Assembly (NCBI GenBank): GCA_947588935.1
Contig: CANQAU010000002.1
Coordinates: 1 to 41,878, forward strand
Reading direction: 5' to 3'
DNA: 41,878 bases
Source: an uncultured Bacilli bacterium
GTDB lineage: Bacteria > Bacillota_I > Bacilli_A > RF39 > UBA660
The translations under genes were made by a program, and so were the position numbers. Of the stretch, positions 7,731-39,745 are shown one piece after another. How positions within the stretch are numbered: position 1 is the first letter of the stretch; the number at the start of each line of letters is the position of its first letter. Below the pieces are notes generated by a model. It ran no database searches, was not told the DNA's origin, and saw only the letters and a list, made by a program, of their open reading frames with translations.

Positions 7731-9950
7731 TTAAGGTTTTAATACTCTTCCTAATGTTTTTTCTTTTTCTACGATGATATCGTCTTTGCCAAAATATCCT
7801 TCCCATTCTACTACGTTTCCGTTTGAATCATAAGAATATTCATTAATGGCACGGGCTCCAATATATTTATATCCGTTGTTTAAGGCTGTTAAGATTTCAT
7901 CTGTATCTGTGAAAACTTTTCTTTCTTTATTCGGAGATTCTAAGACAATTCCATCTTGTTTTCTTTCTAAATCGGCACGATGATACATTTTTAATTCTTT
8001 TACATCAATATTTTGTGCACTATCTGAAATTCTTGCTCCTTCTTTAATGGTATAATCTGCTTCAAAAGATGGTATTTCCTCTAATTGAGCTTGAATTTCT
8101 GGATCCAATTCTGGATTTTCTACAATGACTGGTTTTTCCGTTTTCGGATTTTCTATTACAATTGGTTTTGTTTTGATTTCTTCAATTTGGATATTCTTTT
8201 CATTATTTGGTTGTTTATTCTTATTGCTGCATGCTTTTAATCCGGTTAAAGCGGCGATGAGGGCTAAAGCTCCTAACCCAATTTTGACAGCATTGGCTTT
8301 TATTTTTTGGAAAATTGGTTTCTTTTTCTTTTCCTCCTGTTTTTCCACTTTATCAATTGGAATAAAACATTCGTTATTATGGAAATATCCGATATCTGCG
8401 ATGTATCCTTTTAATTCAAAACCATCGATGAGAGCTTCTTCTAATTCTTGTTTTGAAGCGACTTCAATTCGATCTTTTGGATTTTCAGGATGAGATAACG
8501 CATAGCCGATGACGATTCCTTTTTTGCCTTTTTTAACTTGTTTTTTGGTTTCCGGTTGATCACAGAATTCATCGATATTGGTATACTTTGGAATTTTTTC
8601 GGTTACGACAAACTCTTCTCCAATATCTAACACATTATCGGTTGTTGATTGTTTTTCTTTCCGATATTCTTTTTCTTCTTCGATTTTTTCTTCGACACGT
8701 TTTTCAATTTCGGGGCGAAGACTTTCTGGTAAGTCATAACGTTTATAATCTTCTTCGGTCCATTGATGAAATTCTTCTTCTACGGTTTCGATTTCTTTTG
8801 TTGCTTGGTATAAGCCTAAATCTTCCGCTATATTTTGGGCAATGACATCTAAAACCATATCCAAAAGGTATTCTTTTAATTCGTTAAATTCTTCATCGGT
8901 TAAATCATTCCAACCATAATCTTCTTTGGCTGCTTGTTTGATTTTTTCATATTCCGCCATTAATTGATCATTTGGGATGTTATTTAACTTTTCTTGATAA
9001 TCTTGCATATAAGGAGCAAATTTCTCTTGAATTTGTTCTTGTTCGATGACTTGTTCTTCTTCTTTGGCTTCTTCGATTGGTACAATTTCATAAGTTTTAT
9101 CGTAACCAAATTTTTCTAAAATGGTGTTGATAATTGTATCGAATTCTTGTTGAGTCATATTGAATTTGCTTTGATCATCTTTGGTAAAGAATTCTCCTCG
9201 TTTGATTTGAAAGAGAACTTCTTCTCTTTTTTGATTGGTTAAATGATCCCAATCTAAGGTAGCAAAGAGCTGAATCATTTTTCGATAGAATGTCCATTTT
9301 CTTAATTCATCTTCTAAAGTTCTTTTTAACATTTCCATATCTTGTGGATTTTGAGAATCTAAATTTTTTATGGCTTTTTGTAGTAATGTTTGGTAATTTT
9401 CTTCATCTATTTGCGATGGTTGATATTGATTTAAGGTTTCTTTGATTACTTTGGTAATTTTTTCGGTGTTCACCACGGTTAAATCGGTATTTTCTTCTTT
9501 CATTTTTTCTTTCACTTCCTTGTTTTTCATTGAAATATCGGTTTCGATTTCTTTTTCAACGAGTGCTTTGATTATTTGCATTTCTTCTTTCTGAATTGGA
9601 TATTTTTCGACGGTCAATATCGTTTCAGCAGTTTGAATGCTTTCTAGAAGTTTTTCTTCATCTTCCACATTCAATTTTTCTAGATATAATTTTTCAACGG
9701 TTTTTTCGAAAATTTCTCCTATGAAAACCATTCTGGCAATTTTCTTTCTTAATTCTCTTTGAAATGCGAGCAAATATTGAATTGGGAATCCGTGTTGTTT
9801 TAAATAGGCGATTTGTTCTCTTTTTGATTTTAAAAGTAAAACAATTTTCGCTTGTTCTCGATCATTTTCATTGCGAATATTTAATTTTTTTTCTTTGACG
9901 TACTGCTCGATGTATTGTTCTGCTAGTATCGTCATTTCTTTTTTTTCCAT
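7731..9950 (-). CDS. hypothetical bitopic protein: long Glu/Lys-rich cytoplasmic region, one TM helix, approx 170-aa extracytoplasmic tail
   Basis: 739-aa ORF with SD AGAGGGAG. It has a single hydrophobic segment (AVKIGLGALALIAALTGLKAC) near residue 555. I recognise no family. Confidence 0.6.
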   Translation of the reverse strand: MEKKEMTILAEQYIEQYVKEKKLNIRNENDREQAKIVLLLKSKREQIAYLKQHGFPIQYLLAFQRELRKKIARMVFIGEIFEKTVEKLYLEKLNVEDEEKLLESIQTAETILTVEKYPIQKEEMQIIKALVEKEIETDISMKNKEVKEKMKEENTDLTVVNTEKITKVIKETLNQYQPSQIDEENYQTLLQKAIKNLDSQNPQDMEMLKRTLEDELRKWTFYRKMIQLFATLDWDHLTNQKREEVLFQIKRGEFFTKDDQSKFNMTQQEFDTIINTILEKFGYDKTYEIVPIEEAKEEEQVIEQEQIQEKFAPYMQDYQEKLNNIPNDQLMAEYEKIKQAAKEDYGWNDLTDEEFNELKEYLLDMVLDVIAQNIAEDLGLYQATKEIETVEEEFHQWTEEDYKRYDLPESLRPEIEKRVEEKIEEEKEYRKEKQSTTDNVLDIGEEFVVTEKIPKYTNIDEFCDQPETKKQVKKGKKGIVIGYALSHPENPKDRIEVASKQELEEALIDGFELKGYIADIGYFHNNECFIPIDKVEKQEEKKKKPIFQKIKANAVKIGLGALALIAALTGLKACSNKNKQPNNEKNIQIEEIKTKPIVIENPKTEKPVIVENPELDPEIQAQLEEIPSFEADYTIKEGARISDSAQNIDVKELKMYHRADLERKQDGIVLESPNKERKVFTDTDEILTALNNGYKYIGARAINEYSYDSNGNVVEWEGYFGKDDIIVEKEKTLGRVLKP

Positions 9951-12962: not shown

Positions 12963-12990
12963 AAAAAAAGAAAAGCTTTTTCAAGCTTCG
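12963..12990 (-). terminator. intrinsic terminator overlapping the stop codon of the 387-aa gene
   Basis: Minus strand reads GAAGCTTgaaAAAGCTTTTC followed by TTTTTTT. Confidence 0.55.
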
Positions 12991-14144
12991 TCATTTTTGA
13001 TTTCTTCTCCATACATATTAAAGCGGGTTTCTTGTTGATCTTCTAGAGAAATGGTACTTAAATCTCCGTTTTCTTCGATTTTTACTTCTTGATACCAATT
13101 GTCTTCTAATAGTTTTTCAAAATCCACATTGTATACTTGATAACTCTTTTGGTTGGCACTTTCTTTTTCTAATAAGTAATAGGTTGCCTTACTATTTTTT
13201 AATTCTAACATGGTATATTTTTCATTTTGCATATTGGTAAGGGATAAGGTTTGTTTCACTTCTTTGGTTTTATAGTTCCATACATACCATACATTTGGTT
13301 CATCTGTTTGGGTATTTAATAAATACGCATCATTTATGAGGGTCCAATTTTGATTTTTAAATTCGGTTGTTACTTCTTTATGTTCATAGTCATAAAAAGC
13401 TCTTTGACTCTCTTTGTTTTCTAAAATAAGGCCTTTTATTTGATTGTTGTATCTTAATATTTCGACATCTTGAAGTTCTTCTGATGTATTAATGACTTCT
13501 TTATATTTTGTCTTATAATCATAGATATAATTTACTTTATCCCATAAAATGGAGATATTGTTTTCTTGGTCGATTTTGTAATAATAGCAGTTTTCTACTC
13601 CACACTGATAAGTATCGATAATTCTTTTTTGACTTCCATCGTTCGTCCACTCTAGCTTTCCAGAAGTGGTTTGGTATAAATAAATTTCTTGTGAATCTTG
13701 GGTGTTATTGAATCGATCCATTTCATGATGAATATATCCGTCGATGATTAAATTGGATAGTTCTTTTGCAACTGGATGATCAAATGGTAATAAATAATAC
13801 CGTTTATTTTGACCATTGTAGATATTGATTCCTTCTTCTTGCCATGGTGTTTTCGATGGTTTTAATCCTTTTAAAAGTTGTCTTAATAAACGAACCGTAT
13901 TGTATTCGGTTTTCGGTAACATGTATGAATAACTTGTTTCTCCATCGGTTTCTACTTTTTCAATCTTCCCACTTTGATTATAAAATTGATATGTAATGGA
14001 ATTGGCATTTTCATATTCAAATGATACTTTAAATAATATGCCATTTTCTAATGTATTTTCGTGAACTAAAAATAAGACTAAAAATGTAATGAGTACGATA
14101 CTTAGGAGGGCACCAATCACATATATACCCTTTTTACTTTGCAT
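12981..14144 (-). CDS. hypothetical N-terminally anchored extracytoplasmic protein (Tyr/Asn/Lys-rich)
   Basis: Start moved to the ATG at 14144 (MQSKKGIYVIGALLSIVLITFLVLFLV) because SD GAGGTG lies 4 nt upstream. The track start is a TTG inside that SD. It has one N-terminal helix. Confidence 0.6.
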   Translation of the reverse strand: MQSKKGIYVIGALLSIVLITFLVLFLVHENTLENGILFKVSFEYENANSITYQFYNQSGKIEKVETDGETSYSYMLPKTEYNTVRLLRQLLKGLKPSKTPWQEEGINIYNGQNKRYYLLPFDHPVAKELSNLIIDGYIHHEMDRFNNTQDSQEIYLYQTTSGKLEWTNDGSQKRIIDTYQCGVENCYYYKIDQENNISILWDKVNYIYDYKTKYKEVINTSEELQDVEILRYNNQIKGLILENKESQRAFYDYEHKEVTTEFKNQNWTLINDAYLLNTQTDEPNVWYVWNYKTKEVKQTLSLTNMQNEKYTMLELKNSKATYYLLEKESANQKSYQVYNVDFEKLLEDNWYQEVKIEENGDLSTISLEDQQETRFNMYGEEIKNDEA

Positions 14145-14221
14145 AAAACACCTCAATATTCCTATGATGTTATTATTTTAGCATATATTTTCTAGAAAAA
14201 AAATGTATTCCTCGTAAGTTT

Positions 14222-21242: not shown

Positions 21243-22844
21243 CTAATTTGCTGCTTCCACTTCAATTCTGGCCGTATAGTTTTTACCCATGTTGTAGTCT
21301 TGGTTTACTCCCGTTTCTAAGAAATCATATTGTAGTTCATAACTATAAGTCATTCCTGCTGGAATTAAGACATTTTTTAATAAGTATGTATCGGTTGTTG
21401 GTGCTGTATTTCTTCCTGTTAAAGTAATTCCATCTCTACGAATAGAATATACAAAATCACTTGGTGGATTGAAGGTATTACTTACTCCAGTTAATTTGAT
21501 GTTATAGAACAATGTTTGATTTGAACGGTTATTTACAGTAAAACGCATTGTTCCACTCCAACCTGGTTTTGCATCTTGAATATCAATTTTATTTAAATAT
21601 GAAACATATAGGATATTGTTATTTTGACTGGTAATGTCGATGCTTCCATCGCCTTCCGTTCCTAATGTACAATTTAATTCACATTTTCCATCATTATCGG
21701 TATCGACATTTTTATCTGGTTTACCATCATTATTGGTATCGACATTTAAATCTGGTTTTCCATCGCCGTTGGTATCCACATTTAAATCTGGGAAGCCATC
21801 ATTATTGGTATCACAGTTTAAATCACATACTCCATCTTTGTTGGTATCTTGATTCATTAAATTGTCATCTGGATTTTTATCTCCATCCGTATCTTTATTT
21901 ACGTCTGGTGTTCCATCTTTATCTACATCTAGGTCAATATTTGGTTTACCATCTTTATCGGTATCAACATTTAAATCTGGATTGCCATCGCCATCCATAT
22001 CGACATTGACATCTGGATGACCATCATCATTTGTATCACAGTTTAAGTCACATACTCCATCATTGTCGGTATCTTGATCCATTAAATTATGATCTGGTGT
22101 TCCATCGCCGTCGTTATCTTGATTGAAATGAGATTTATTATCGCCACCGTAATCAACATTTTTATCTGGTTTGCCATCATTATTGGTATCCACATTGACA
22201 TCTGGTGTTCCATCGCCATCGGTATCCACATTTAAATCCGGTTTGCCATCGCCGTCGGTATCGATGTTGGTATCTGCTTTTCCATCCCCATTGTTGTCAA
22301 TATTTAAATCTGGTTTGCCATCCCCATCGATATCGATGTTGGTATCTGGATAACCATCTTTGTTGGTATCACAATTGACATCACAAACTCCATCGCTATT
22401 ATTATCTTGATTCATGTGGTTAAAATCTGGTTTTTTATCATAATTGGTATCGATGCCAAAATGAGGAATTCGATCATGATTATAATCGATGTTGTAATCT
22501 GGTTTACCATCCCCATCACTATCACAATTGACATCACAAATGTTATCTCCATCTAAATCAATATTTAAATCGGTTTCACCATTTCCATCCGTATCACAGT
22601 TTAAATCGCATTTTCCGTCGCCATTGAAATCACAATTCAGTCCACATGTTTTTCCGCCTTCAATTGCTCCACCATAAAGGCGAATATAAGAATATGTGGC
22701 TCCAATCATTGCTAAAAATAAGATTAATAAGCATAGCAAGATAATTATAAAGGTTTTCTTCTTGGCTTGTTCTTGCTCTTCTGCTAAAAGCTCTTGATAT
22801 TGCTCTTCGAAATCGATATTTTCTACTGGCTTATTCTCTTTCAT
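21243..22844 (-). CDS. secreted Asp-rich Ca-binding repeat protein (thrombospondin type 3-like repeats) with a TasA-like C-terminal domain
   Basis: 533 aa. Signal/anchor FIIILLCLLILFLAMIGATYSYIRLY, then about 26 units of approx 12 aa (LNVDTDGDGKPD), some carrying CDxNCD. The last approx 125 aa form a beta-rich domain ending MGKNYTARIEVEAAN. SD AAGAAGGA. Confidence 0.8.
   Translation of the reverse strand: MKENKPVENIDFEEQYQELLAEEQEQAKKKTFIIILLCLLILFLAMIGATYSYIRLYGGAIEGGKTCGLNCDFNGDGKCDLNCDTDGNGETDLNIDLDGDNICDVNCDSDGDGKPDYNIDYNHDRIPHFGIDTNYDKKPDFNHMNQDNNSDGVCDVNCDTNKDGYPDTNIDIDGDGKPDLNIDNNGDGKADTNIDTDGDGKPDLNVDTDGDGTPDVNVDTNNDGKPDKNVDYGGDNKSHFNQDNDGDGTPDHNLMDQDTDNDGVCDLNCDTNDDGHPDVNVDMDGDGNPDLNVDTDKDGKPNIDLDVDKDGTPDVNKDTDGDKNPDDNLMNQDTNKDGVCDLNCDTNNDGFPDLNVDTNGDGKPDLNVDTNNDGKPDKNVDTDNDGKCELNCTLGTEGDGSIDITSQNNNILYVSYLNKIDIQDAKPGWSGTMRFTVNNRSNQTLFYNIKLTGVSNTFNPPSDFVYSIRRDGITLTGRNTAPTTDTYLLKNVLIPAGMTYSYELQYDFLETGVNQDYNMGKNYTARIEVEAAN
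21645..22649 (-). repeat. in-frame tandem 36-nt (12-codon) repeat array encoding DxDxDGxxD units, arranged in three approx 90-100-aa super-repeats
   Basis: Recurrent gatggtaaaccagat / gacggcgatggcaaaccggat-type units occur on the minus strand. Three blocks each start with N(H/L)M(N/D)QD..DGVCD(V/L)NCDTN.DG.PD. Confidence 0.85.
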
Positions 22845-30066: not shown

Positions 30067-31665
30067 CTATAAAATGTTCATGACATATCTTTTGTTACGA
30101 ATGGTCACAAAAATTCTAATTTCACTAGCATTTTTAATGGTACTTGGTACTTGGAATATTAAGCCGTCTTGGTACGTGGATGGGGTGACATTCTCAACCG
30201 AGATGGTATCGGTCGTGATGGCCGTGGTATATTGAATGGTCATAAAGTGTTCCGGCATTAAACGATTGGTTTTGGCAGAACGATAATAAATGACACTTTG
30301 ATCTACGTCATAATTGCTGTCTAAAATTAATAGTGTTTTGGTCGATGTATTGGTGGTAATTCGGTTTGATAACGTGCGGCAGGAGGTTTCACTGTCACAT
30401 TGTTGATATTGATAGGTTAAACTATCGGCGATTTGGTATCCTTTTATTTGAAAGTGGCTATAACCGATATTGGATTCTTCAAAGGTGGCAATTTTTCCTA
30501 GTTCGATAAATTTCACATTTTCCATGCCAAAAGCATGGTCTGGTTTTAAATTGACTGTTTTATATTTTGGTGTAATTTGTCCGACATTAATGACGGTTTG
30601 CTCTAAGATTTTTAACGTGTAATTATCTTGAATTTCGGATGGATCTAATTCATAAGCAACGGCGTAAGTATTTTGAGATTTTGGAGTTAAAATGGTGTCT
30701 TGTTTTAATGCCAGTCCGACATCAATAAAGTATCCACCTCGATCGAGGGTGGCATAGACACGGCGATTTTTTAATTCAATAAAGAAGTTGTTGTAGTCAA
30801 ATTTGGCATTGGTCGTTCCCCTATTTTCAATATTGTATTGAATGACTAGATAGTATTTATTTTGGGGCAGACTTTTTCCACCAAAATCAATGTTCGTAAG
30901 CATGCTTCCTACGACACGAACATTTAACGTATCATGGGAGATAATTTGCTTTTCTTGATATCTTTTGTTATAGACATCTCGATTTAAATAAATTAAATTT
31001 CCGATAATGATTACGACAATGGAGCAAAGAATCATGAAAATAAATTTATTTTCTAATACATAATAGCGAAATTCACGAAAAAAGCGACGAATATTTCTTT
31101 TGATTTTATAATCTTCGATGCCGATGTTTAACTCAAATTCTTCTGAGTCAATATCGGTAATTTCTAGTTCTTTAATATCGGTATCAAAATTAAATTTTTT
31201 GATATCAAAGCCGACTCCTCGAAATAAGGTAAAGGCTGCAAATAAAAATTGAGGAAGATAAAAGATATAGGAGATATCTCGATATGCTCTGGCTGAGGTA
31301 GCATCTAACATGGTGGTTTCCATACCACTTAAAATACTATGGGTAACTCCTAACATGATAAACAAGATTGTATAGTTGATAATTAATAAAAGATAATAAA
31401 TCGTCGATTTTTCTTTTTGACGCATTAGAAAATAGATAAAAATTCCTACAAATAGGATGCATAGAATAGCAAAATACATAAAGTAATTTACATAATTTCC
31501 AGCAATATTTGTGATATTGGTCGTATAACCGTTACTTACATATTCTTGAAAGAAGGCAGAAATATTTCCTGTCTTCACAATCATATAAATGATTGGGATA
31601 GCAAGAATTAAATGAATTAAGCGAAAATGTTTGATTAAAAATGCATATGGTTTACGCAGTATCAT
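30067..31665 (-). CDS. hypothetical polytopic membrane protein with a large extracytoplasmic beta-rich C-terminal region
   Basis: Start moved to the ATG at 31665 (MILRKPYAFLIKHF...) because SD GGGAGAG precedes it. About five N-terminal helices plus one more helix come before the C-terminal region. The segment YYLVIQYNIENRGTTNAKFDYNNFFIEL looks like an Ig-like (DUF4352-type) strand pattern; that family assignment is tentative. Confidence 0.6.
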   Translation of the reverse strand: MILRKPYAFLIKHFRLIHLILAIPIIYMIVKTGNISAFFQEYVSNGYTTNITNIAGNYVNYFMYFAILCILFVGIFIYFLMRQKEKSTIYYLLLIINYTILFIMLGVTHSILSGMETTMLDATSARAYRDISYIFYLPQFLFAAFTLFRGVGFDIKKFNFDTDIKELEITDIDSEEFELNIGIEDYKIKRNIRRFFREFRYYVLENKFIFMILCSIVVIIIGNLIYLNRDVYNKRYQEKQIISHDTLNVRVVGSMLTNIDFGGKSLPQNKYYLVIQYNIENRGTTNAKFDYNNFFIELKNRRVYATLDRGGYFIDVGLALKQDTILTPKSQNTYAVAYELDPSEIQDNYTLKILEQTVINVGQITPKYKTVNLKPDHAFGMENVKFIELGKIATFEESNIGYSHFQIKGYQIADSLTYQYQQCDSETSCRTLSNRITTNTSTKTLLILDSNYDVDQSVIYYRSAKTNRLMPEHFMTIQYTTAITTDTISVENVTPSTYQDGLIFQVPSTIKNASEIRIFVTIRNKRYVMNIL

Positions 31666-31725
31666 ACTATCTCTCCCTATATCATCATTATACAACAAAA
31701 AAAATATGAAAAAAACTCCATATTT

Positions 31726-32238: not shown

Positions 32239-33396
32239 TTAATCTTCTTTTATAAAAATCATGTTATGGTAATTAAAATTCCATTCAAAATAACTTAATA
32301 CTGGTACTTCTCCTTGTTGTTCTGAATAGGCGTAAAGCGTATCTCCAGCTAGATAATAGACTTTATCTTCTATGGTGTATACAATCTCTTTAATCTCTTT
32401 GGTACTAATTAACTTTTTGTTCTCACTATTTTGATAAGTAACATAGAGTCCTTGGGAAATTTGATACGTATATTTTCTCTCATCGGAAAATTGGTGTGTT
32501 TCATTTACTAATTCATTCATCTGGATATTTTCCCATTTTCCATTATTCCAAATTTTGCCATCTTTTTTATTGGTACCAATTTTGGTCATTTTTTTCTTTT
32601 TGGGATTTATTTCCCATTCGATATTATTTTTTTTATCCACGTAATACACTGCGTTTTTATGAACTCCAAGGTTATACCCATCATGATACAATGTGTCTTT
32701 AAATTCCCAGGTGGTGAGTTTATCATCCTTGGTATTTAATAAATACAATTTATTGAGATAAAAATCTGCGTGATAATCTGGGATGATGATATAATCATTG
32801 GCTTTGATGACATTGGATATGTCATACACATCTTCTTCAAATAAAGGGATGGTTTTGGTTTCTTTTTTATTGATTTTATAAAACCCTTTATAATTCCAGA
32901 CATAATATGTTACATCATCGATGTTTTTGATATCAATTCGTTCATACGTATTGGTTTGGGCATTGACGGTGGTTAATAAAGCCTCGTCAAAGTGTTCTTT
33001 CATTTTTTCTGGGACTAAGTGGTAGTCTACTTGTGTTCCATTCATAAAGCATTGTGGATATATTTTTTGATTTTCCAGTGTTGGGATGATGCAGTGAGTA
33101 TTTTCTTCTTCCAGCGTTTCAATGCTTTTGATTCTTTCTTTTTGGGGAGAATATTTTTCGTTTGTTAAAAACACATAAGTCTGATCTTCTTTTTGAATTT
33201 GATAGGTATATGCCTTTAACGCTTTATCATAGATTTCGAGAATTTGGTATTCGTCTCGTTCATATTGTTTTTGATAATCTCTTGGATGAACTATGAGATA
33301 AATGATGAACGTGATGAAGAAAATGAGTATGGCAAGAGCAATGCGTCGTCTTTTTTGTTTGATTTTATTTGGCTTCTTCGTGATTTTGTAGTCCAT
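32239..33396 (-). CDS. hypothetical N-terminally anchored extracytoplasmic protein (Tyr/Asn/Lys-rich)
   Basis: 385 aa. Basic N-terminus plus helix IALAILIFFITFIIYLIV. It overlaps the upstream gene by 32 nt, which suggests translational coupling. Confidence 0.6.
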   Translation of the reverse strand: MDYKITKKPNKIKQKRRRIALAILIFFITFIIYLIVHPRDYQKQYERDEYQILEIYDKALKAYTYQIQKEDQTYVFLTNEKYSPQKERIKSIETLEEENTHCIIPTLENQKIYPQCFMNGTQVDYHLVPEKMKEHFDEALLTTVNAQTNTYERIDIKNIDDVTYYVWNYKGFYKINKKETKTIPLFEEDVYDISNVIKANDYIIIPDYHADFYLNKLYLLNTKDDKLTTWEFKDTLYHDGYNLGVHKNAVYYVDKKNNIEWEINPKKKKMTKIGTNKKDGKIWNNGKWENIQMNELVNETHQFSDERKYTYQISQGLYVTYQNSENKKLISTKEIKEIVYTIEDKVYYLAGDTLYAYSEQQGEVPVLSYFEWNFNYHNMIFIKED

Positions 33397-33817: not shown

Positions 33818-33837
33818 GTATTCACCTTCTTGTTTTT

Positions 33838-33866
33838 ATTTTATAATTTTTTTTCTCTTAATGCAA
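33838..33866 (-). promoter_or_regulatory. candidate promoter of the 33817->28129 operon
   Basis: Minus strand reads TTGCAT (33861-33866), a 17-nt spacer, then TAAAAT (33838-33843). The context is AT-rich, so specificity is weak. Confidence 0.35.
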
Positions 33867-33932
33867 TGTTTGGTACTTATTTGATTTGAAAGATTTTCGA
33901 ATTCTATTTTGCTTTTCGGGTTTTAAAATCTT

Positions 33933-34133
33933 GTGCATTTCAAAGATATCACTCGTGATACTCACTTTATAAATGATCCATGTTATTTAAATACGTTGCA
34001 AAAAGTAGCAGATGAAATGGAAAAAAATGTTTATGCTATTCATAATGATGGCGCGATGATCTATGATCGTAAGACTGGGGATTTAAAAATATTTGGAAAT
34101 GTGAATACTTTTCTTCCAAAAGAGAGTAAGTAA
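33933..34133 (+). CDS. doubtful 66-aa ORF (GTG start, no SD)
   Basis: It is the only ORF in a 0.75-kb gap. It has a GTG start with no purine-rich SD, and I recognise no family. It may be non-coding or a gene remnant. Confidence 0.25.
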   Translation: MHFKDITRDTHFINDPCYLNTLQKVADEMEKNVYAIHNDGAMIYDRKTGDLKIFGNVNTFLPKESK

Positions 34134-34216
34134 TAAAATTATTCGTTGCGGATTATGATTATATGGATTTTTAATCTGGAATACTTGATAAAAATATCAT
34201 ATAAAAACTAAACGTT

Positions 34217-34225
34217 TGATATAAT
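34217..34225 (+). promoter_or_regulatory. extended -10 promoter (TGaTATAAT) of the small-peptide transcript
   Basis: tgatataat at 34217-34225. The predicted start is near 34232, which is exactly where the 5' complementary segment begins. No good -35 element is present. Confidence 0.5.
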
Positions 34226-34303
34226 GTTCATGGATACATTTGAAATATATCAGATGTTTTCCCTTTCAATTATCAAAAGATAAGAGAAAGGTGGTGGTTC
34301 ATT

Positions 34304-34381
34304 ATGACAAAAAGAGAAGCATCTCTATTTATTATAATCCTACTATTATTCTTCATAGTAATCACCTTACTATTTAGATAA
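34304..34381 (+). CDS. 25-aa hydrophobic peptide MTKREASLFIIILLLFFIVITLLFR (type I toxin-like small membrane peptide)
   Basis: It falls below the ORF-track length cutoff. ATG at 34304 is preceded by AAAGGTGGTGG with 7-8 nt spacing, and TAA is at 34379-34381. The peptide has a charged N-terminus, a single TM-length hydrophobic stretch and a terminal Arg. Confidence 0.5.
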   Translation: MTKREASLFIIILLLFFIVITLLFR

Positions 34382-34429
34382 TAAAAACATCTGATCTCAA
34401 CAATCGTTGATTTCAGATGCACTCCATAA

Positions 34430-34470
34430 GGGATAACATCTGATTCCTACAATCAAATGTATCCTTTTTT
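34430..34470 (+). terminator. intrinsic terminator of the small-peptide transcript
   Basis: gggataacatctgat (34430-34444) - tcctaca - atcaaatgtatcc (34452-34464), with one mismatch and one bulge, followed by tttttt. Confidence 0.65.
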
Positions 34471-34500
34471 ATTTTATTCAAGTTTCCTTGATATATTCAT

Positions 34501-34542
34501 AATAACATAAAAACAACTTTTTTGCAAGTTGTCTTTATGTTA
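34501..34542 (-). terminator. long hairpin / terminator downstream of ssrA
   Basis: ataacataaaaacaactt (34501-34518) - ttttgc - aagttgtctttatgttat (34525-34542), 18 bp with one mismatch. On the minus strand the inner stem is followed by TTTTTATGTTAT. Confidence 0.55.
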
Positions 34543-34583
34543 TACATACTCGAATTATAAATAAGTCCGAGTATCAATCAATC

Positions 34584-34947
34584 TGGTGGAGCAGAGGAGA
34601 GTTGAACTCCTGTCCAAACAATTCTATGATAAAACATCTACAAGTTTAGTGAAAATTAGATCTCATAGTTTTTCAGGCTTTCACACACCTAACCAAACTA
34701 CCAGTTTAATTTGTATTCTTTCAGTTACCTTAAACAAATAACTGAGTATATCTTATATTTATGAACTCTATTATTTCCCTATAAGAAAAAGAAATATAGA
34801 GTGCTTCTACGACCTTAAATTAGGCTGCTACAAAAGCAGGAGAAGCGAAAGAATAACTTTCGTCATTTAAATTTTAATTTGCATTTATAGTATGCCTACT
34901 ACTTGCAGTCTTATCTAGTGATTGCTGTCGAAACCATTTACTGCCCC
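34584..34947 (-). ncRNA. ssrA: tmRNA (transfer-messenger RNA, SsrA), 364 nt
   Basis: The minus strand starts GGGGCAGTAAATGGTTTCGACAGC and ends GGACAGGAGTTCAACTCTCCTCTGCTCCACCA. The acceptor stem GGGGCAG/CTGCTCC carries the G3:U70 Ala identity pair, and the T-arm is GGAG-TTCAACT-CTCC. An internal tag frame reads ...GAC GAA AGT TAT TCT TTC GCT TCT CCT GCT TTT GTA GCA GCC TAA = ...DESYSFASPAFVAA*. Confidence 0.93.
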
Positions 34948-34954
34948 ATGTGCT

Positions 34955-37666
34955 TTATTTTAGCACATCTTCTTCTTTTTGTATAGTTTGCTCCCGTTTT
35001 TTTCTTGGACTTATAATCTTTATATATTGTTTGATTTTGAATTGTTGTTCCATTAAGAGTCTTTGTTTCCAATATTCTAATACTTCTCTTTCGGTATTCT
35101 TGATGAGATAGTGATAGTGTTTACTTTGTTTTAAATATTCATATCCTTTTTGGCTATTTTGAATGATCTCTTCTAAAATATTGGGTATTTGATTTCCAAA
35201 CAATAATAAGTTTTCCGCAAAAATCTGATAAATTTGTTCTTCTTCTACTGAATAAGTGGACGCTAGTTCTTTGGCACTTCTTTGTCTTCTTCTTTCCTTT
35301 ATTAATACGAGCTTTCTTTTCTCCATTGTTAAACTTTCTTTTAATAACTCTTTGAGTGATTCTTCTTTCGTATTTCGTTTTAAATAACTGATGGCATTAT
35401 AATAAATTTTTCTTTCTTCTTCCGTTAACGTATTCCATTCTAACAATGATTTTCCAGCTCTTTTATAAATTACTTGATAATATTGTGGATGAGTGTCTTG
35501 ACAAGCATCGATGAGGCTAACTAATTTTTCGTGACTTACTTTTGGAAATTGGTTTTCAATCGAGAACGTTGGATACAAAATTCTTTTTAGTTTTAATTTT
35601 GCTTGGGAATACCGAATTCCTTCTTGGGTGGTTAATGGATTTCTTTCAATTAGTTTTGGTCCATGACATTGGATGATGATATCATAATCAACTTGATTGA
35701 TGGTTTTTAATTTTTCCACTGCTTTTTTGACTTCTGCAATGGTCTTATCTGGATAATACGAATATAGAGTTTGAGTGGTTGGAATTAAAAATTTTTGAAG
35801 CAGTTTGATTGCTTGGACATATTTTTTTTCATCAACGAGACACCTGTTGTCATCCTCTAGCATTTCACCATTTTTTTGAACTACTATCTCATACAGTTCT
35901 GGTCTTACCCGTTTTAGTCTTTTCATGATTTTGATTCTTTTGGCTTTACTGGTTAGTTGAAAAACTTCTTTTCCATTTATTTGGTCTTTTTCTTTTTTTC
36001 TTTTTGGATTTAAAAGTTGTTTCATTTTCTTAATGGCTTGATGATATAATTCGTCTTCTTGTTGTTCTTTGGATAAATTGTGCCACTCTACCTGCGTCTT
36101 TCCATGTCGTTTGATGAGGATGTCTATATATTGTGGATTTTCTTCTTTTAAAATGTTGAGGGCTTGATTTATTTTTTCTTTGTCATCACATTCGACCATT
36201 TTTTGAAGTGTTCTTTTATTTTTTAAAATCATTCGCATCTGTTTGATGACTTCTTGTAATTTCTTCTTTTCTTCTTTGGTTAACTCTTGGCAATTTATGA
36301 GTGTTTCTGTATAAGCTTTTTGAATGATTTCATAAGCTGGTGGATCGGATTTTAGGACGTTTACTAAATGATCAACGGTTGACTTTTCTTCGCCTTCAAA
36401 AAATTCGTAAATCGTTTTATGGCGCAAGGTGGCTTCTTTTCTTTTTTTGACCATTAATTTTCCTTCTTCTACAATGGTCGCAGCGTTTTTTTGGACTTTG
36501 ATGATCATCTGTCTTAATTTTTTTATCGCATCTTCATATGTTTTTGTTTCTTCTTTGGATAATTGATGCCATTCTAATAGAGATTGTCCATGACATTTGA
36601 TGATGATTTGGTAAAACATTGGATATTCATATTGAAAGGTTTCAAATACTTTTCGGACGGTTGTATTTTCCGTTTTGAAAAATCGATGATATAAGGTATA
36701 TTTTTCTTTTCGTTGTTCTTTTAGATATTGTAACCAATTTTGACCGTCAATGAAAATATCTAAGAGATTGGTTTGTTCATCATATGGAACTATGCCTAAA
36801 AATTGGAGCATTCTTCCATATTGTTCTCCTTCTTTTTTGGATAAAATTTCTAATTCTTTTTGAATCATATCTTCTGTAAAATCAATTGAATGATATACTT
36901 TTTTTTGTAAATATTTTAAAGCATTTTCTGGATACATGGTGGTGGTTATGCGAATGAGTTCCTGACTAAATTCAAAGTTACTTTTGTACATTCTTTTTAA
37001 CATAAAGTAATATCTTTTTGCCCAGTCCATACGTTTTTCGATTTCTTGATATTCTTCGGTATTGGGACTGGTACTTTTTTGAAGTATTTGTTTTTCTTCT
37101 AGTGTAAAGGTACACATGATGCTTTGAAAAACGAGCAGCCAATCTTTATATTTTTGAGCAGTATACTTTTCAAAAAAAGTAACTTCTTTTTTTGGAGGAG
37201 TGAACGAACTTTTCTTTTTTGGTTCTTCTTTTTTCACTCTTTGATCTAGTAAATATTTGCGATACATTTTTTCCAATTGGGTATCGATGCCAATGTCTTT
37301 TGGACGATTTATATATAAAAAGGTGGCAATTCGGATAAAAACTATTCGATCTTTTTCATTTTCTTCTTTATGAAAGTCGCGCATGATGTTGTGATATAAA
37401 TTTTCTCTTGGCAAGATGATTTTTTTATATGTTTTTGAATCCGGATTTTCGAAAATGGTTTTGATGTAGCATTCTACAACATAGCCAATGACAAATTTTT
37501 CTTGTTCTTCTTCGGTTTTGGTAATGAGTTGTTTTCCATATTGTTTTAAAAGATGTTTTGTCATTCTTTCTTTGACGGGATCTGCGATTTTTATGCGATT
37601 TAGTTGTTCGTTATTTAATCTTTCGAAAACACTTTGAATTTTTGCTTGTAGTTGTTCTGTGTTCAT
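34955..37666 (-). CDS. large cytoplasmic protein with tandem sigma-70 region-4-like helix-turn-helix modules
   Basis: Start moved to the ATG at 37666 (MNTEQLQ...; SD TGGGGGAAAA). The track start is a GTG. No TM or signal peptide. At least 6 modules of approx 65-75 aa of the type T(I/L)Y.(F/Y)F...(15-20)...P.YY.II.K.HG..L.EW..L(S/T).EE...Y..AI.KLK..L. Confidence 0.7.
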   Translation of the reverse strand: MNTEQLQAKIQSVFERLNNEQLNRIKIADPVKERMTKHLLKQYGKQLITKTEEEQEKFVIGYVVECYIKTIFENPDSKTYKKIILPRENLYHNIMRDFHKEENEKDRIVFIRIATFLYINRPKDIGIDTQLEKMYRKYLLDQRVKKEEPKKKSSFTPPKKEVTFFEKYTAQKYKDWLLVFQSIMCTFTLEEKQILQKSTSPNTEEYQEIEKRMDWAKRYYFMLKRMYKSNFEFSQELIRITTTMYPENALKYLQKKVYHSIDFTEDMIQKELEILSKKEGEQYGRMLQFLGIVPYDEQTNLLDIFIDGQNWLQYLKEQRKEKYTLYHRFFKTENTTVRKVFETFQYEYPMFYQIIIKCHGQSLLEWHQLSKEETKTYEDAIKKLRQMIIKVQKNAATIVEEGKLMVKKRKEATLRHKTIYEFFEGEEKSTVDHLVNVLKSDPPAYEIIQKAYTETLINCQELTKEEKKKLQEVIKQMRMILKNKRTLQKMVECDDKEKINQALNILKEENPQYIDILIKRHGKTQVEWHNLSKEQQEDELYHQAIKKMKQLLNPKRKKEKDQINGKEVFQLTSKAKRIKIMKRLKRVRPELYEIVVQKNGEMLEDDNRCLVDEKKYVQAIKLLQKFLIPTTQTLYSYYPDKTIAEVKKAVEKLKTINQVDYDIIIQCHGPKLIERNPLTTQEGIRYSQAKLKLKRILYPTFSIENQFPKVSHEKLVSLIDACQDTHPQYYQVIYKRAGKSLLEWNTLTEEERKIYYNAISYLKRNTKEESLKELLKESLTMEKRKLVLIKERRRQRSAKELASTYSVEEEQIYQIFAENLLLFGNQIPNILEEIIQNSQKGYEYLKQSKHYHYLIKNTEREVLEYWKQRLLMEQQFKIKQYIKIISPRKKREQTIQKEEDVLK
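35375..36700 (-). repeat. six tandem protein-level repeats (approx 65-75 aa each) inside the 903-aa gene
   Basis: Module cores: MFYQIIIKCHGQSLLEWHQLSKEETKTYEDAIKKLRQMI; AYEIIQKAYTETLINCQELTKEEKKKLQEVIKQMRMIL; QYIDILIKRHGKTQVEWHNLSKEQQEDELYHQAIKKMKQLL; ELYEIVVQKNGEMLEDDNRCLVDEKKYVQAIKLLQKFL; DYDIIIQCHGPKLIERNPLTTQEGIRYSQAKLKLKRIL; QYYQVIYKRAGKSLLEWNTLTEEERKIYYNAISYLKRN. Confidence 0.75.
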
Positions 37667-37760
37667 TTGCTTTTCCCCCAACACTCAAATTTGAATTTAT
37701 TATAACACTTTTTTTCTTTTTTCTTACTCTTTTTTCTTTCAATGGTATGGGTTGTTTCAT

Positions 37761-37834: not shown

Positions 37835-39745
37835 ATGAATATGTATGATGAAAAACTACCAAAAAAAGAGAAAAAAGAGACGGTTGTAAAAGAAAAACGA
37901 AGTTTTAAAAAGAAGATTACTCTTCCAACTGTTCATTTTGATGCAAAATCAGCATTGAAGAAAATTGGCATTTTGGCTGTAGTTGTTTTTGCGTTTATTT
38001 TTATTACTACCAAAATTAGTCAGGGATCTGAAAAAAAGGTATTTGAAAAAAACTTAGAGTCTTTACGCAGTGCTGCTTATCGCTATTTTAAAGAAAATGA
38101 ACGTCCTACAGAAAAAGATGAAGAAATGCAAGTTACCTTGCAAGAGTTAATCGATGAAGATTATGCAGATAACCTTCAAGATAAAAAAGGGAATGTCTGT
38201 GATCCAGAAGAAAGTAATATTACCATTATTAAAAATACTTCTACCAAATATGATTTAGTTGCTCATTTAAATTGCGGAGAAAAAGAAAAAGAAAAAACTT
38301 ATCAACTTACTTATACAAAGACCAAAGATGATGAAGAAGATGATGCGACGGAAGAAAATGGAAGTACCACTTATTATAAAATGCAAAAACCAGTGAATGC
38401 TTCTCATTTGACTTATAGTTGTCCAAGTGGTTATATCCTTTCTGGAACTTATTGTTATCAAAATGCTACTACTTTGACAGCTACTCCGACGGCTAAATAT
38501 AAAACTACTCAACAAAAAATTACAAAAGCAAGTTATAAAAGTGCTCAGGATGAATATGAATATGTCGATGCTATTTTGGTGCCTGGACAAAGTCATTATA
38601 CTTGTAGTGATAAAGATGCTACGTTGGTTGGAGATCAATGTATTATTCAAAAGCCGGCGGTGATGAAAACGGAATCCAATTATACTTGTAGTGAAGGAGA
38701 ACTTGATGGAACGAAATGTGTGATTTCTGTTCCTGCTATTCGAAAAGATTATCGTTATACCTGCCCTTCTGGAACGTTGATTGGGGATCAATGTGAAATT
38801 ACACGCGATTATTATGCATCATATGAATGTCCAAGTGATTATCCACATCGAGATGGAGATCGTTGCTATTATACTTCTCGCGCTGAACGAGATTGGGGAG
38901 ATTGGCATAAAACTTCTCGAAAGACTTATACGAAAGAAATGGATAATAAAAATACCGATTCTAAAAAATATGAATTGGTCGATACTTACGATGGAAAAAA
39001 TAGAAAAACCAACTATGTTTATGTCGTTTATACCCGTCAGAAAGAAAATATATGCTACGATATTTCTGGTGAGAATGTCGTTTTAAAAGGTTCGAAATGT
39101 TATCATTATATTTCTGCTTATGAAGATAAAGATTGTCCTTATGGATATGATTTAAATGAAGAAGAAAATCGATGTGTGAAATATGTTGCTGCCAAAGAAA
39201 CTTCTTCTAAAATTCATTATGAATGCCCAAGTGAGGAATATGACAAACGTGGTAGTGGTGAAAATACAACTTGTGTGTTAAAGAAAAATGCACAGAAAGT
39301 GGAGACATCGACGCCGAAATGTTCGAGTGGATATAATGCTGTAGCGAATACGGATGGTACGTATTCTTGTGTAAAAACCTTGGATGCGAAACTCGTAACG
39401 GAGGAAGATGATTATATTTGTCCAACGGGTTATACTAAAAAGGGTACTGGAAAGAATACCAAATGTTATTTAAAAACAGAAAAAGAAGGATATTATTATT
39501 GTAAAAATACAGAGGCTCGTTTAGAGGGTCAAAATTGTATTGTAGATGCCAAAACCGAATTTATTGGATATACTTGTCCAAGTGGATATGATTTGAATGG
39601 AGAACAGTGTATTAAAGTCATCTCTGGAACCAAGAAAAAGGCTACGAGTACGAAAGTTGCAGATTTGGAATATACGTATAAATGGAGTACGAAAAAAGAA
39701 GTCGCTGGTGGTTGGACTTGGACAGGAGAAACCAAACAAGCTTAA
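37835..39745 (+). CDS. membrane-anchored extracytoplasmic protein with 12 Cys-pair repeats
   Basis: 636 aa. Lys-rich N-terminus, one TM (IGILAVVVFAFIFITT), a membrane-proximal approx 100-aa domain with one Cys pair, then 12 units such as YSCPSGYILSGTYCY, YTCPSGTLIGDQCE, YICPTGYTKKGTGKNTKCY and YTCPSGYDLNGEQCI. Confidence 0.8.
   Translation: MNMYDEKLPKKEKKETVVKEKRSFKKKITLPTVHFDAKSALKKIGILAVVVFAFIFITTKISQGSEKKVFEKNLESLRSAAYRYFKENERPTEKDEEMQVTLQELIDEDYADNLQDKKGNVCDPEESNITIIKNTSTKYDLVAHLNCGEKEKEKTYQLTYTKTKDDEEDDATEENGSTTYYKMQKPVNASHLTYSCPSGYILSGTYCYQNATTLTATPTAKYKTTQQKITKASYKSAQDEYEYVDAILVPGQSHYTCSDKDATLVGDQCIIQKPAVMKTESNYTCSEGELDGTKCVISVPAIRKDYRYTCPSGTLIGDQCEITRDYYASYECPSDYPHRDGDRCYYTSRAERDWGDWHKTSRKTYTKEMDNKNTDSKKYELVDTYDGKNRKTNYVYVVYTRQKENICYDISGENVVLKGSKCYHYISAYEDKDCPYGYDLNEEENRCVKYVAAKETSSKIHYECPSEEYDKRGSGENTTCVLKKNAQKVETSTPKCSSGYNAVANTDGTYSCVKTLDAKLVTEEDDYICPTGYTKKGTGKNTKCYLKTEKEGYYYCKNTEARLEGQNCIVDAKTEFIGYTCPSGYDLNGEQCIKVISGTKKKATSTKVADLEYTYKWSTKKEVAGGWTWTGETKQA
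38411..39613 (+). repeat. 12 divergent protein-level repeats (Y-x-C-P-x-G-Y-x-L-x-G-x-x-C hairpin units)
   Basis: Cys pairs at residues 196/207, 256/269, 284/295, 310/320, 332/344, 407/422, 434/447, 464/480, 496/512, 529/544, 556/568 and 581/592 (C-x9-15-C). Each is usually preceded by an aromatic residue two positions before the first Cys. Confidence 0.8.

Follow-up and report, generated by a model that had tools for sequence, protein, structure and literature searches.

Region 4 of the sigma-70 factors (hereafter sigma-4; PF04545 and PF08281) is among the best-studied bacterial domains, and structures of the sigma-70 holoenzyme show it seated on the tip of the β-flap of RNA polymerase. The small Firmicute proteins called 'sigma factor-like helix-turn-helix DNA-binding proteins', which we take to be of the YlxM/UPF0122 and RinA/ArpU types, presumably comprise region 4 only. 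Sigma factors can also carry C-terminal additions: extracytoplasmic function (ECF) groups with SnoaL-like or other regulatory extensions, such as SigG1/ECF56, have been described (PMC7730460). This work describes a 903-amino acid (aa) protein encoded on the minus strand (34955..37666, ATG at 37666) of contig CANQAU010000002.1 from an uncultured Bacilli bacterium (assembly GCA_947588935.1), of which the stretch from position 1 to 41,878 was analyzed (41,878 nucleotides (nt), hereafter the window). The protein carries six tandem modules that are derived from sigma-4 yet are not helix-turn-helix (HTH) units, and its C-terminal domain is probably a divergent sigma-4 HTH.

The resemblance to region 4 is threefold. 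Modules of the family align to both region 4.1 helices (Prob 88%), one module superposes on region 4 of SigA at 2.7 Å over 63 columns in a non-significant Foldseek match, and the C-terminal domain can be aligned with the region 4.2 HTH found in the terminal sigma-4 domains of its relatives (Prob 79%). Unlike region 4, the modules show a loop instead of a first HTH helix, stay below the threshold of every sigma or HTH model and occur in tandem, with six copies here and up to 18 in relatives, whereas the putative C-terminal HTH displays an acidic, hydrophobic 'recognition' helix. Some relatives are, like the extended sigma-70 factors, sigma factors with large C-terminal extensions. Their extension differs from the sensor extension of ECF factors in being a sigma-4-derived array followed by a second sigma-4 domain, attached to a group 1-type sigma factor (region 1.2 is present in half of those tested), and the 903-aa protein itself is devoid of any sigma part. 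With the small region-4-only proteins it shares a stand-alone, region-4-like character and the lack of regions 2 and 3, and relatives composed of modules (P0048, P0071, P0041 and P0075, all with weak matches to phage sigma/regulator PHROGs) also end in a full sigma-4 domain. However, those small proteins hold one complete HTH, whereas the modules studied here have none. Their annotation name, as quoted in the initial annotation, could not be verified for any member of the family, and literature searches for the phrase returned nothing relevant. Tetratricopeptide (TPR)-like repeats are likewise tandem short helical units, but the unit described here is a 66-aa three-helix domain instead of a 34-aa hairpin; Pfam gave no TPR match in the protein and no solenoid was among the Foldseek matches. 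While the ancestry of the domain is known, the architecture of an HTH-less sigma-4 array is apparently undescribed: no description of tandem sigma-4 arrays, or of sigma factors carrying them, was found in the searchable literature, and the module family is absent from the Pfam, NCBIfam and PHROGs models. To our knowledge, neither the amplification of region 4 into 4-18 HTH-less copies nor a sigma factor with an array and a second sigma-4 domain has been described.

Six tandem modules in the 903-aa protein

The array spans nt 35366-36700 and comprises six modules of ~66 aa on the minus strand: module 1 at 36497..36700 (aa 323-390), module 2 at 36215..36415 (aa 418-484), module 3 at 36002..36211 (aa 486-555), module 4 at 35777..35977 (aa 564-630), module 5 at 35570..35770 (aa 633-699) and module 6 at 35366..35569 (aa 700-767). 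The initial annotation, made from the sequence alone, had proposed six consecutive modules with a common consensus at nt 35375-36700, and profile recovery bears this out with the boundaries given here. In a leave-one-out comparison, the profile of any five modules recovers the sixth at E values from 4e-21 to 5e-6 (best of 999 shuffles ≤ 11 bits), with 4.4e-21, 4.5e-10, 4.6e-15 and 4.7e-6 for modules 1 to 4, respectively. A module profile built from other proteins only recognizes five of the six at an independent E value (i-E) of ≤ 4e-13 (2.7e-14, 9.4e-14 and 1.1e-13 for modules 1 to 3) and module 4, the most divergent copy, at 0.019. Identity of the other modules to module 1 amounts to 25-34%. 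Because no tandem repeat is present at the DNA level, the copies are ancient rather than a product of the assembly.

The protein is predicted to be all-helical and is basic (isoelectric point (pI) 9.3 and net charge +37, computed from the sequence). Single modules are near neutral (net charge -1 to +7, two of them acidic) and the whole array reaches +24, the positive charge being located mainly in the basic linkers between the modules. The maximum Kyte-Doolittle score over a 19-residue window is 0.96, so the protein has neither a transmembrane segment nor a signal peptide and is predicted to be cytoplasmic.

Searches against Pfam, NCBIfam and PHROGs gave nothing credible for the 903-aa protein or for single modules. 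Individual modules were also compared with Sigma70_r4, Sigma70_r4_2 and the HTH families of Pfam, as the initial annotation had suggested, and none matched at E ≤ 10. A word-indexed homologue search with the whole protein retrieved the protein itself only and one with a 90-module profile a single 123-aa fragment, so the family is invisible to word-based searching; a whole-protein scan of a genome collection found nothing. Sequence searches of the PDB with profiles of the module, the C-terminal domain and the N-terminal domain, and with the N-terminus of the relative P0003, revealed no sigma factor or other credible match. The module profile weakly matched designed TPR proteins with one half of the module (27 residues), each repeat being individually non-significant.

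The module family and its fusions to sigma factors

When the six-module profile was run exhaustively with HMMER against 1.84 billion cluster representatives, 92 other proteins were identified, 45 of which had E ≤ 1e-10; up to 15 stretches were matched per protein. Iteration within this set yielded 508 modules in 91 proteins, ranging from 1 to 18 per protein.

In at least 12 of the 92 relatives, a complete sigma-70 factor is extended by 4-14 modules, after which comes a second sigma-4 domain. A complete sigma-70 precedes the array in P0036, P0073, P0040, P0053, P0054, P0078, P0085, P0087, P0088, P0035 and P0067, and more divergently in a twelfth protein, P0086. The sigma motifs LIQEGNIGL...KGYKFSTYATWWIRQ and VTRERIRQIE can be read directly in these 12 proteins. 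Pfam regions 2, 3 and 4 (r2, r3 and r4) were detected at E values of 1e-11 to 1e-33 in seven of the eight fusions tested (P0036, P0073, P0040, P0085, P0088, P0035 and P0067, with 4-10 modules behind them), four of which also contain Sigma70_r1_2; P0086 matched r4 only. One member of a fusion cluster, MBR1376553.1, is named 'sigma-70 family RNA polymerase sigma factor [Bacilli bacterium]' by NCBI; such a named member was found in 1 of 20 clusters looked up, on a single protein. At another locus (L004), the gene of the 18-module protein P0003 runs into the start of a second gene of 1090 aa, whose translation shows sigma r2-r4, then eight modules (i-E 1e-7 to 5e-19) and an HTH domain at the end. 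The two giant genes have overlapping stop and start codons (L004 6001-14096) and are flanked by Tad/type II secretion-like pilus genes on one side and by FtsW/SpoVE and SpoIIP on the other. P0003 itself has a sigma-like N-terminus, 18 modules and a terminal HTH.

Other relatives are composed of modules throughout. These proteins (P0048, P0071, P0041, P0075 and P0082) match many curated sigma models over their region 4 portion, with TIGR02937 above its cut-off in four all-module proteins, and they sit in housekeeping contexts. Residues 42-63 of P0048 also have a sub-threshold match to NF045770 of NCBIfam (27 bits versus a cut-off of 37.3), the C-terminal domain of the Mycoplasma MG284/MPN403 family; the mollicute MG284/MPN403 proteins may thus carry one such module, and literature searches on them returned nothing relevant. 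The core common to the relatives is a variable number of modules followed by a terminal sigma-4 domain. This core either stands alone or follows a complete sigma-70 factor or a sigma-like N-terminus.

About 18 proteins share the N-terminal and/or C-terminal domain of the 903-aa protein (E values of 1e-8 to 1e-19 and 1e-5 to 1e-28, respectively) and form its orthologue group. Module numbers vary widely within this group, with one module in P0052 and P0059, two in P0028, P0051 and P0092, five in P0008, six in P0006 and the 903-aa protein, seven in P0005 and ten in P0007. The flanking domains are also duplicated within some relatives: P0019 (1675 aa) has the N-terminal domain at both ends, P0011 (767 aa) has two C-terminal domains, and the second half of the N-terminal domain is repeated in P0059 and P0024.

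Kinship of the modules to region 4.1 and predicted fold

The profile of 90 modules (A2) was aligned by hhalign to region 4 of the fusion proteins with a Prob of 87.7% (P 3.4e-6), while the region 2 control gave a Prob of 0.3%. The match comprises 28 columns only and covers the two region 4.1 helices up to a conserved glycine. Likewise, the Pfam model Sigma70_r4_2 (54 positions) is matched by the arrays of relatives from position 2 to 32 only. Whole-protein Pfam matches of apparent significance in relatives (TMEM106, SspK, Gluconate_2-dh3 and others) were rejected as artefacts of summed weak repeat matches, as no single stretch was individually significant. Since summed repeat scores also yield such spurious families, the kinship to sigma factors rests on the profile-profile result and its control, and summed Sigma70_r4 scores over repeats were not counted alone as proof. 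At the family level, these profile comparisons show the modules to be homologous to region 4.1. The relation of the tandem array to sigma-70 region 4 that had been proposed initially is in this way upheld, through both the sigma fusions in relatives and the region 4.1 match.

AlphaFold2 was run on modules 5 and 6 as a di-module (aa 633-768) with a 54-row di-module alignment (A7). The resulting model has a mean predicted local distance difference test score (pLDDT) of 95.9 (about 97 for module 5 and about 95 for module 6) and a predicted template modeling score (pTM) of 0.69. Each modeled module displays a 4-residue helix at the TLYxYF motif, helix 1 of 14 residues, helix 2 of 11 residues, a non-helical segment of 11 residues and a last helix of 18 residues (17 in the second module). 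The loop is located at the place of the first HTH helix of sigma-4, and the tight turn after helix 2 that defines the helix-turn-helix geometry is missing in the modeled modules. Conserved residues of the module are mostly core hydrophobics and the loop motif KRHG..L.EWN, the most conserved polar motif of the family, which reads KRHGxxLxEWN in the subgroup of the 903-aa protein. The only low root-mean-square deviation (rmsd) match of the model in the PDB was 7kuf_B, a chimera of SigA region 4 and the β-flap tip (63 columns, 2.7 Å, 21% identity), which had the highest probability in the Foldseek list at a non-significant E value of 7.2; all other matches exceeded 9 Å. The superposition of the model agrees weakly with the sequence evidence for sigma-4 kinship. 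A full-length AlphaFold2 model made without an alignment reached a pLDDT of 39.7, and its Foldseek matches are meaningless.

Because the match is to region 4.1 and the model has a loop in place of a helix, the modules are derived from sigma-4 but are not HTH units. The initial annotation had described a poly-HTH protein and had named AlphaFold as a check; the modeled modules show no HTH fold, the likeness to region 4 ends before the HTH and no module matches an HTH or Sigma70_r4 family, which corrects the poly-HTH idea.

The C-terminal domain

The protein ends in a conserved domain at 35003..35341 on the minus strand (aa 776-888) that is found in at least 17 relatives at E values of 1e-16 to 1e-41. 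The C-terminal segment SAKELASTYSVEEEQIYQIF, singled out in the initial annotation, was located within this domain at aa 797-816. A profile of 27 sequences (A8) was made of the conserved terminal domain of the fusion and all-module proteins. Over its full length it matches more than 60 sigma chains of solved structure (E values down to 6e-11), and it matches region 4 by hhalign with a Prob of 97.7%, and on these matches the terminal domain of the relatives is a bona fide sigma-4. The C-terminal profile of the group of the 903-aa protein (A3) aligns to A8 with a Prob of 79% (P 1.6e-5, 48 columns), compared with 0.6% for the region 2 control. The aligned stretch corresponds to aa 794-841 and takes in the segment at aa 797-816. 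By this profile-profile comparison, aa 795-825 (QRSAKELASTYSVEEEQIYQIFAENLLLFGN; 35192..35284, minus strand) form a probable divergent sigma-4-type HTH.

When started from one such terminal domain, jackhmmer retrieved true region 4 and the modules. It also retrieved the C-terminal domains of P0011 and P0050, whereas the 903-aa protein itself was not reached; its C-terminal domain has no direct match to sigma models either, despite the Prob of 79% to A8. Some orthologues have sub-threshold HTH_7, HTH_11, HTH_28 and HTH_23 matches in this domain. An alignment of the domain found one contig of a metagenome-assembled genome (MAG) and none among viral contigs or JGI metagenome contigs. The would-be recognition helix SVEEEQIYQIFAEN (consensus S.EEIY.I.A.N) is acidic and contains no basic residue; the basic residues IKERRRQR lie just upstream of it. 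Taken together, these results make the C-terminal domain a probable divergent HTH of the sigma-4 type, and of the seven region-4-derived parts of the protein at most one is an HTH.

These observations bear on the possibility, named in the initial annotation, that the protein is a DNA binder and would coat or bridge DNA, as a nucleoid or DNA-array binder in which every module acts as a sigma-4-like HTH. The basic character of the protein and its array would suit such a role, as would the descent of the modules from a DNA-binding domain and the probable C-terminal HTH, and the array could bind DNA non-specifically through its linkers. On the other hand, the first HTH helix is absent from the modules in a model with a pLDDT of 96, the similarity to region 4 stops before region 4.2 and no module matches HTH or Sigma70_r4. 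Moreover, the modules are near neutral with the charge placed in the linkers, their conservation is concentrated in the hydrophobic core and the loop motif, and the only candidate recognition helix is acidic. We consider a poly-HTH DNA binder improbable and disfavour this explanation.

The N-terminal domain

The first 322 residues (36701..37666, minus strand) form a family-specific domain that is conserved in about 15 cluster representatives. Its profile has no relative among the solved structures of the PDB and no significant similarity to the sigma parts of the relatives (hhalign, P 0.11). A degenerate sigma factor (regions 1.1 to 3) was considered for this domain and rejected (hhalign P 0.06-0.33; 0.01 in global mode). 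Sigma70_r2 was not matched anywhere in the protein by Pfam or NCBIfam at E ≤ 10. The initial reading that regions 2 and 3 are lacking and that the protein is no conventional sigma factor therefore agrees with the Pfam, NCBIfam and hhalign results: the 903-aa protein is not a sigma factor.

More degenerate module copies had also been described toward the N-terminus. Module profiles score only -1.9 to +1.1 bits there, and weak module-like hints, in register, were limited to aa 175-201 (P 0.04-0.009) and aa 262-296 (P 0.003) in profile-profile comparison. As neither the module-profile nor the profile-profile scores are significant, degenerate modules near the N-terminus were not confirmed.

Possible function

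The anatomy of a family-specific N-terminal domain, six modules and a probable divergent sigma-4 HTH is well supported. From it we infer a mechanism that would operate at RNA polymerase or at promoters. Tentatively, we read the protein as a sigma-less member of a sigma-4-repeat family that most likely serves as a multivalent adaptor there. Each module retains both region 4.1 helices and the long last helix, a conserved loop having replaced the first HTH helix. The arrays would have arisen by tandem duplication of sigma-4, the internal copies losing their HTH. Such an origin is probable because the relatives share the core of modules and terminal sigma-4 domain, with or without a sigma factor, and the 903-aa protein would be the version in which the sigma part was exchanged for another domain. 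On this reading it would most likely work in trans on the transcription machinery, where it would be a multivalent adaptor or spacer with modules that make protein contacts or provide spacing. The candidates for a partner are the usual contacts of sigma-4, namely the β-flap of RNA polymerase, sigma itself and regulators. Any non-specific nucleic-acid contact would be made by the basic linkers and the IKERRRQR patch and not by the recognition helix.

Several observations weigh against a multivalent adaptor at the polymerase. The functional argument draws on ancestry and on fusions and adjacency in relatives, not on this genome, and no sigma gene is present in the 41,878-nt window. The link to sigma-4 is transitive, through the family, since the six modules of the protein reach just a Prob of 7.4% (P 0.005, hhalign) against region 4, and Foldseek gave no significant match for the di-module in the PDB or BFVD. 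One third of the protein, the N-terminal domain, could define the function yet matches nothing. Finally, module numbers of 1-10 among orthologues fit a loose scaffold and argue against a precise geometric role.

Part of this could also be read as the mark of a generic helical-repeat scaffold with a role outside transcription, for instance a cytoplasmic adaptor or structural protein, for which the sigma-4 ancestry is mere history. The plastic module number, the N-terminal domain without known relative, the absence of a sigma gene nearby within the window and the weak sequence match to designed TPR proteins all point that way. Against such a scaffold, sigma factors recur across the family as fusion or operon partners of the arrays, the arrays terminate in a sigma-4 domain, and by structure there is no match to TPR or another solenoid. 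We rate it as unlikely. Similarly doubtful is a sigma-4 decoy, in which the modules titrate the β-flap tip, an anti-sigma factor or an activator, and the protein inhibits or stores RNA polymerase. The modules retain region 4.1 and the last helix of sigma-4, the seating of region 4 on the β-flap tip is established for sigma-70 holoenzymes, and the one sensible structural match is the SigA region 4/β-flap-tip chimera. In relatives, however, the arrays are covalently joined to intact sigma factors, which is hard to square with pure inhibition. Of the roles that the initial annotation had suggested, a scaffold or a decoy would be in better agreement with the evidence than a binder of DNA arrays, and the adaptor at RNA polymerase or promoters is the reading that we favour.

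A wider proposition, which we put forward as speculative and rather unlikely, is that sigma-4-derived arrays, whether on sigma factors or on sigma-less proteins, are a new functional element of bacterial transcription: a multivalent arm that would reach upstream DNA or regulators, or cluster RNA polymerases. If this were true, some uncultured gut Bacilli would have a mode of promoter engagement or polymerase organization without counterpart in model bacteria. Arrays that act at RNA polymerase would represent a new kind of accessory architecture in bacterial transcription, in lineages (uncultured gut Bacilli) recorded in metagenomes only. Together, the profile of the module and the model of the di-module define a domain family that Pfam and NCBIfam lack and that could help to annotate about 90 protein clusters now without a name.

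Genomic context

The open reading frame (ORF) of 903 aa was confirmed as initially called, on the minus strand and preceded by likely expression signals at 37674..37707 (minus strand; predicted as consensus matches read from the sequence): a ribosome-binding site GGGGGA at 37679-37674 and an extended -10 element TGtTATAAT at 37707-37699. A longer reading from a GTG at 37684 would start too near the -10 box, and the 903-aa reading from the ATG at 37666 was therefore preferred. The position of the gene was likewise described correctly, directly upstream of the transfer-messenger RNA (tmRNA) gene ssrA (34584..34947, minus strand), the 5' end of which lies 7 nt from the stop codon, and divergent from a Cys-rich ORF of 636 aa without Pfam match (37835-39745, plus strand). 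A promoter-like site for ssrA (TATACA-17-TAAAAT with TG; predicted, consensus match) is found at 34985-34957 on the minus strand, inside the last codons of the ORF (last 30 nt), and ends 10 nt before the 5' end of the tmRNA. Given the 7-nt gap and this internal site, ssrA is either co-transcribed with the 903-aa gene or started within it.

The order of pheT, divergent ORF, family gene and ssrA in the window is shared with two other loci, L001 (JGI metagenome; P0006) and L007 (P0008), which comprise pheS, pheT, a divergent ORF of ~520-630 aa, the family gene and, 41-52 nt downstream on the same strand, the tmRNA. Divergent ORF, family gene and tmRNA also follow each other in L002 (uncultured Bacilli MAG CANQXM010000048; P0007) and L008 (P0028), contigs that do not show the pheST part (L002 has an ORF at that position and L008 ends earlier). 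The divergent position is occupied by ORFs at 5942-7819 in L001 (625 aa), 3265-4833 in L007 (522 aa), both without Pfam match, and 1676-3565 in L002 (629 aa). As ORFs hold the same position in three related loci, the divergent pair appears conserved in position.

In five loci of uncultured gut Bacilli (the window, L001, L002, L007 and L008), the family gene thus precedes ssrA on the same strand at a distance of 7-52 nt, and this, with the ssrA promoter-like site inside the 3' end of the ORF, could suggest that the protein controls ssrA expression or acts jointly with tmRNA in trans-translation. Yet the five loci belong to one clade with a shared wider gene order (pheST and others), so the adjacency may be mere inheritance; the more distant orthologue P0051 (L009) is not beside ssrA, and no part of the protein is similar to SmpB or to an RNA-binding domain. 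We consider a role in trans-translation very improbable and regard the position next to ssrA as gene order passed down by descent, without taking it as a sign of function.

A phage or mobile origin was rejected, as the protein has no PHROG match and no relatives in viral contigs, and the chromosomal context is a housekeeping one. The gene of the 903-aa protein is a conserved chromosomal gene and not mobile. Directly after the tmRNA of L008 (2777-7729), three serine-recombinase/resolvase genes and a D5_N/DUF5906 primase-like gene were found, which looks like an integrative element inserted at ssrA. In L002 (7621-8302), ARAGORN reported a second, permuted 'tmRNA*' overlapping the real tmRNA, probably a false positive. 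The ~770 bp between the tmRNA and a bPH_3 gene in the window (33818-34583) contain only a 66-aa ORF and may represent gene loss or a remnant, because L001 has a PNP_UDP_1 (nucleoside phosphorylase) gene there.

The window is ordinary chromosome of 29-36% GC, with genes for sulfatase, tex, trxB-like, lgt, uvrA and uvrB, as well as DHH/DHHA2, ABC/FtsX, LysM, bPH and pheT. Many of its large ORFs (up to 739 aa) have no Pfam family, examples being those at 7731-9950, 12981-14156, 21243-22844, 30067-31698 and 32239-33396, which indicates that the lineage is poorly covered by current protein families. The sequence is present in rabbit-gut and other gut metagenome runs.

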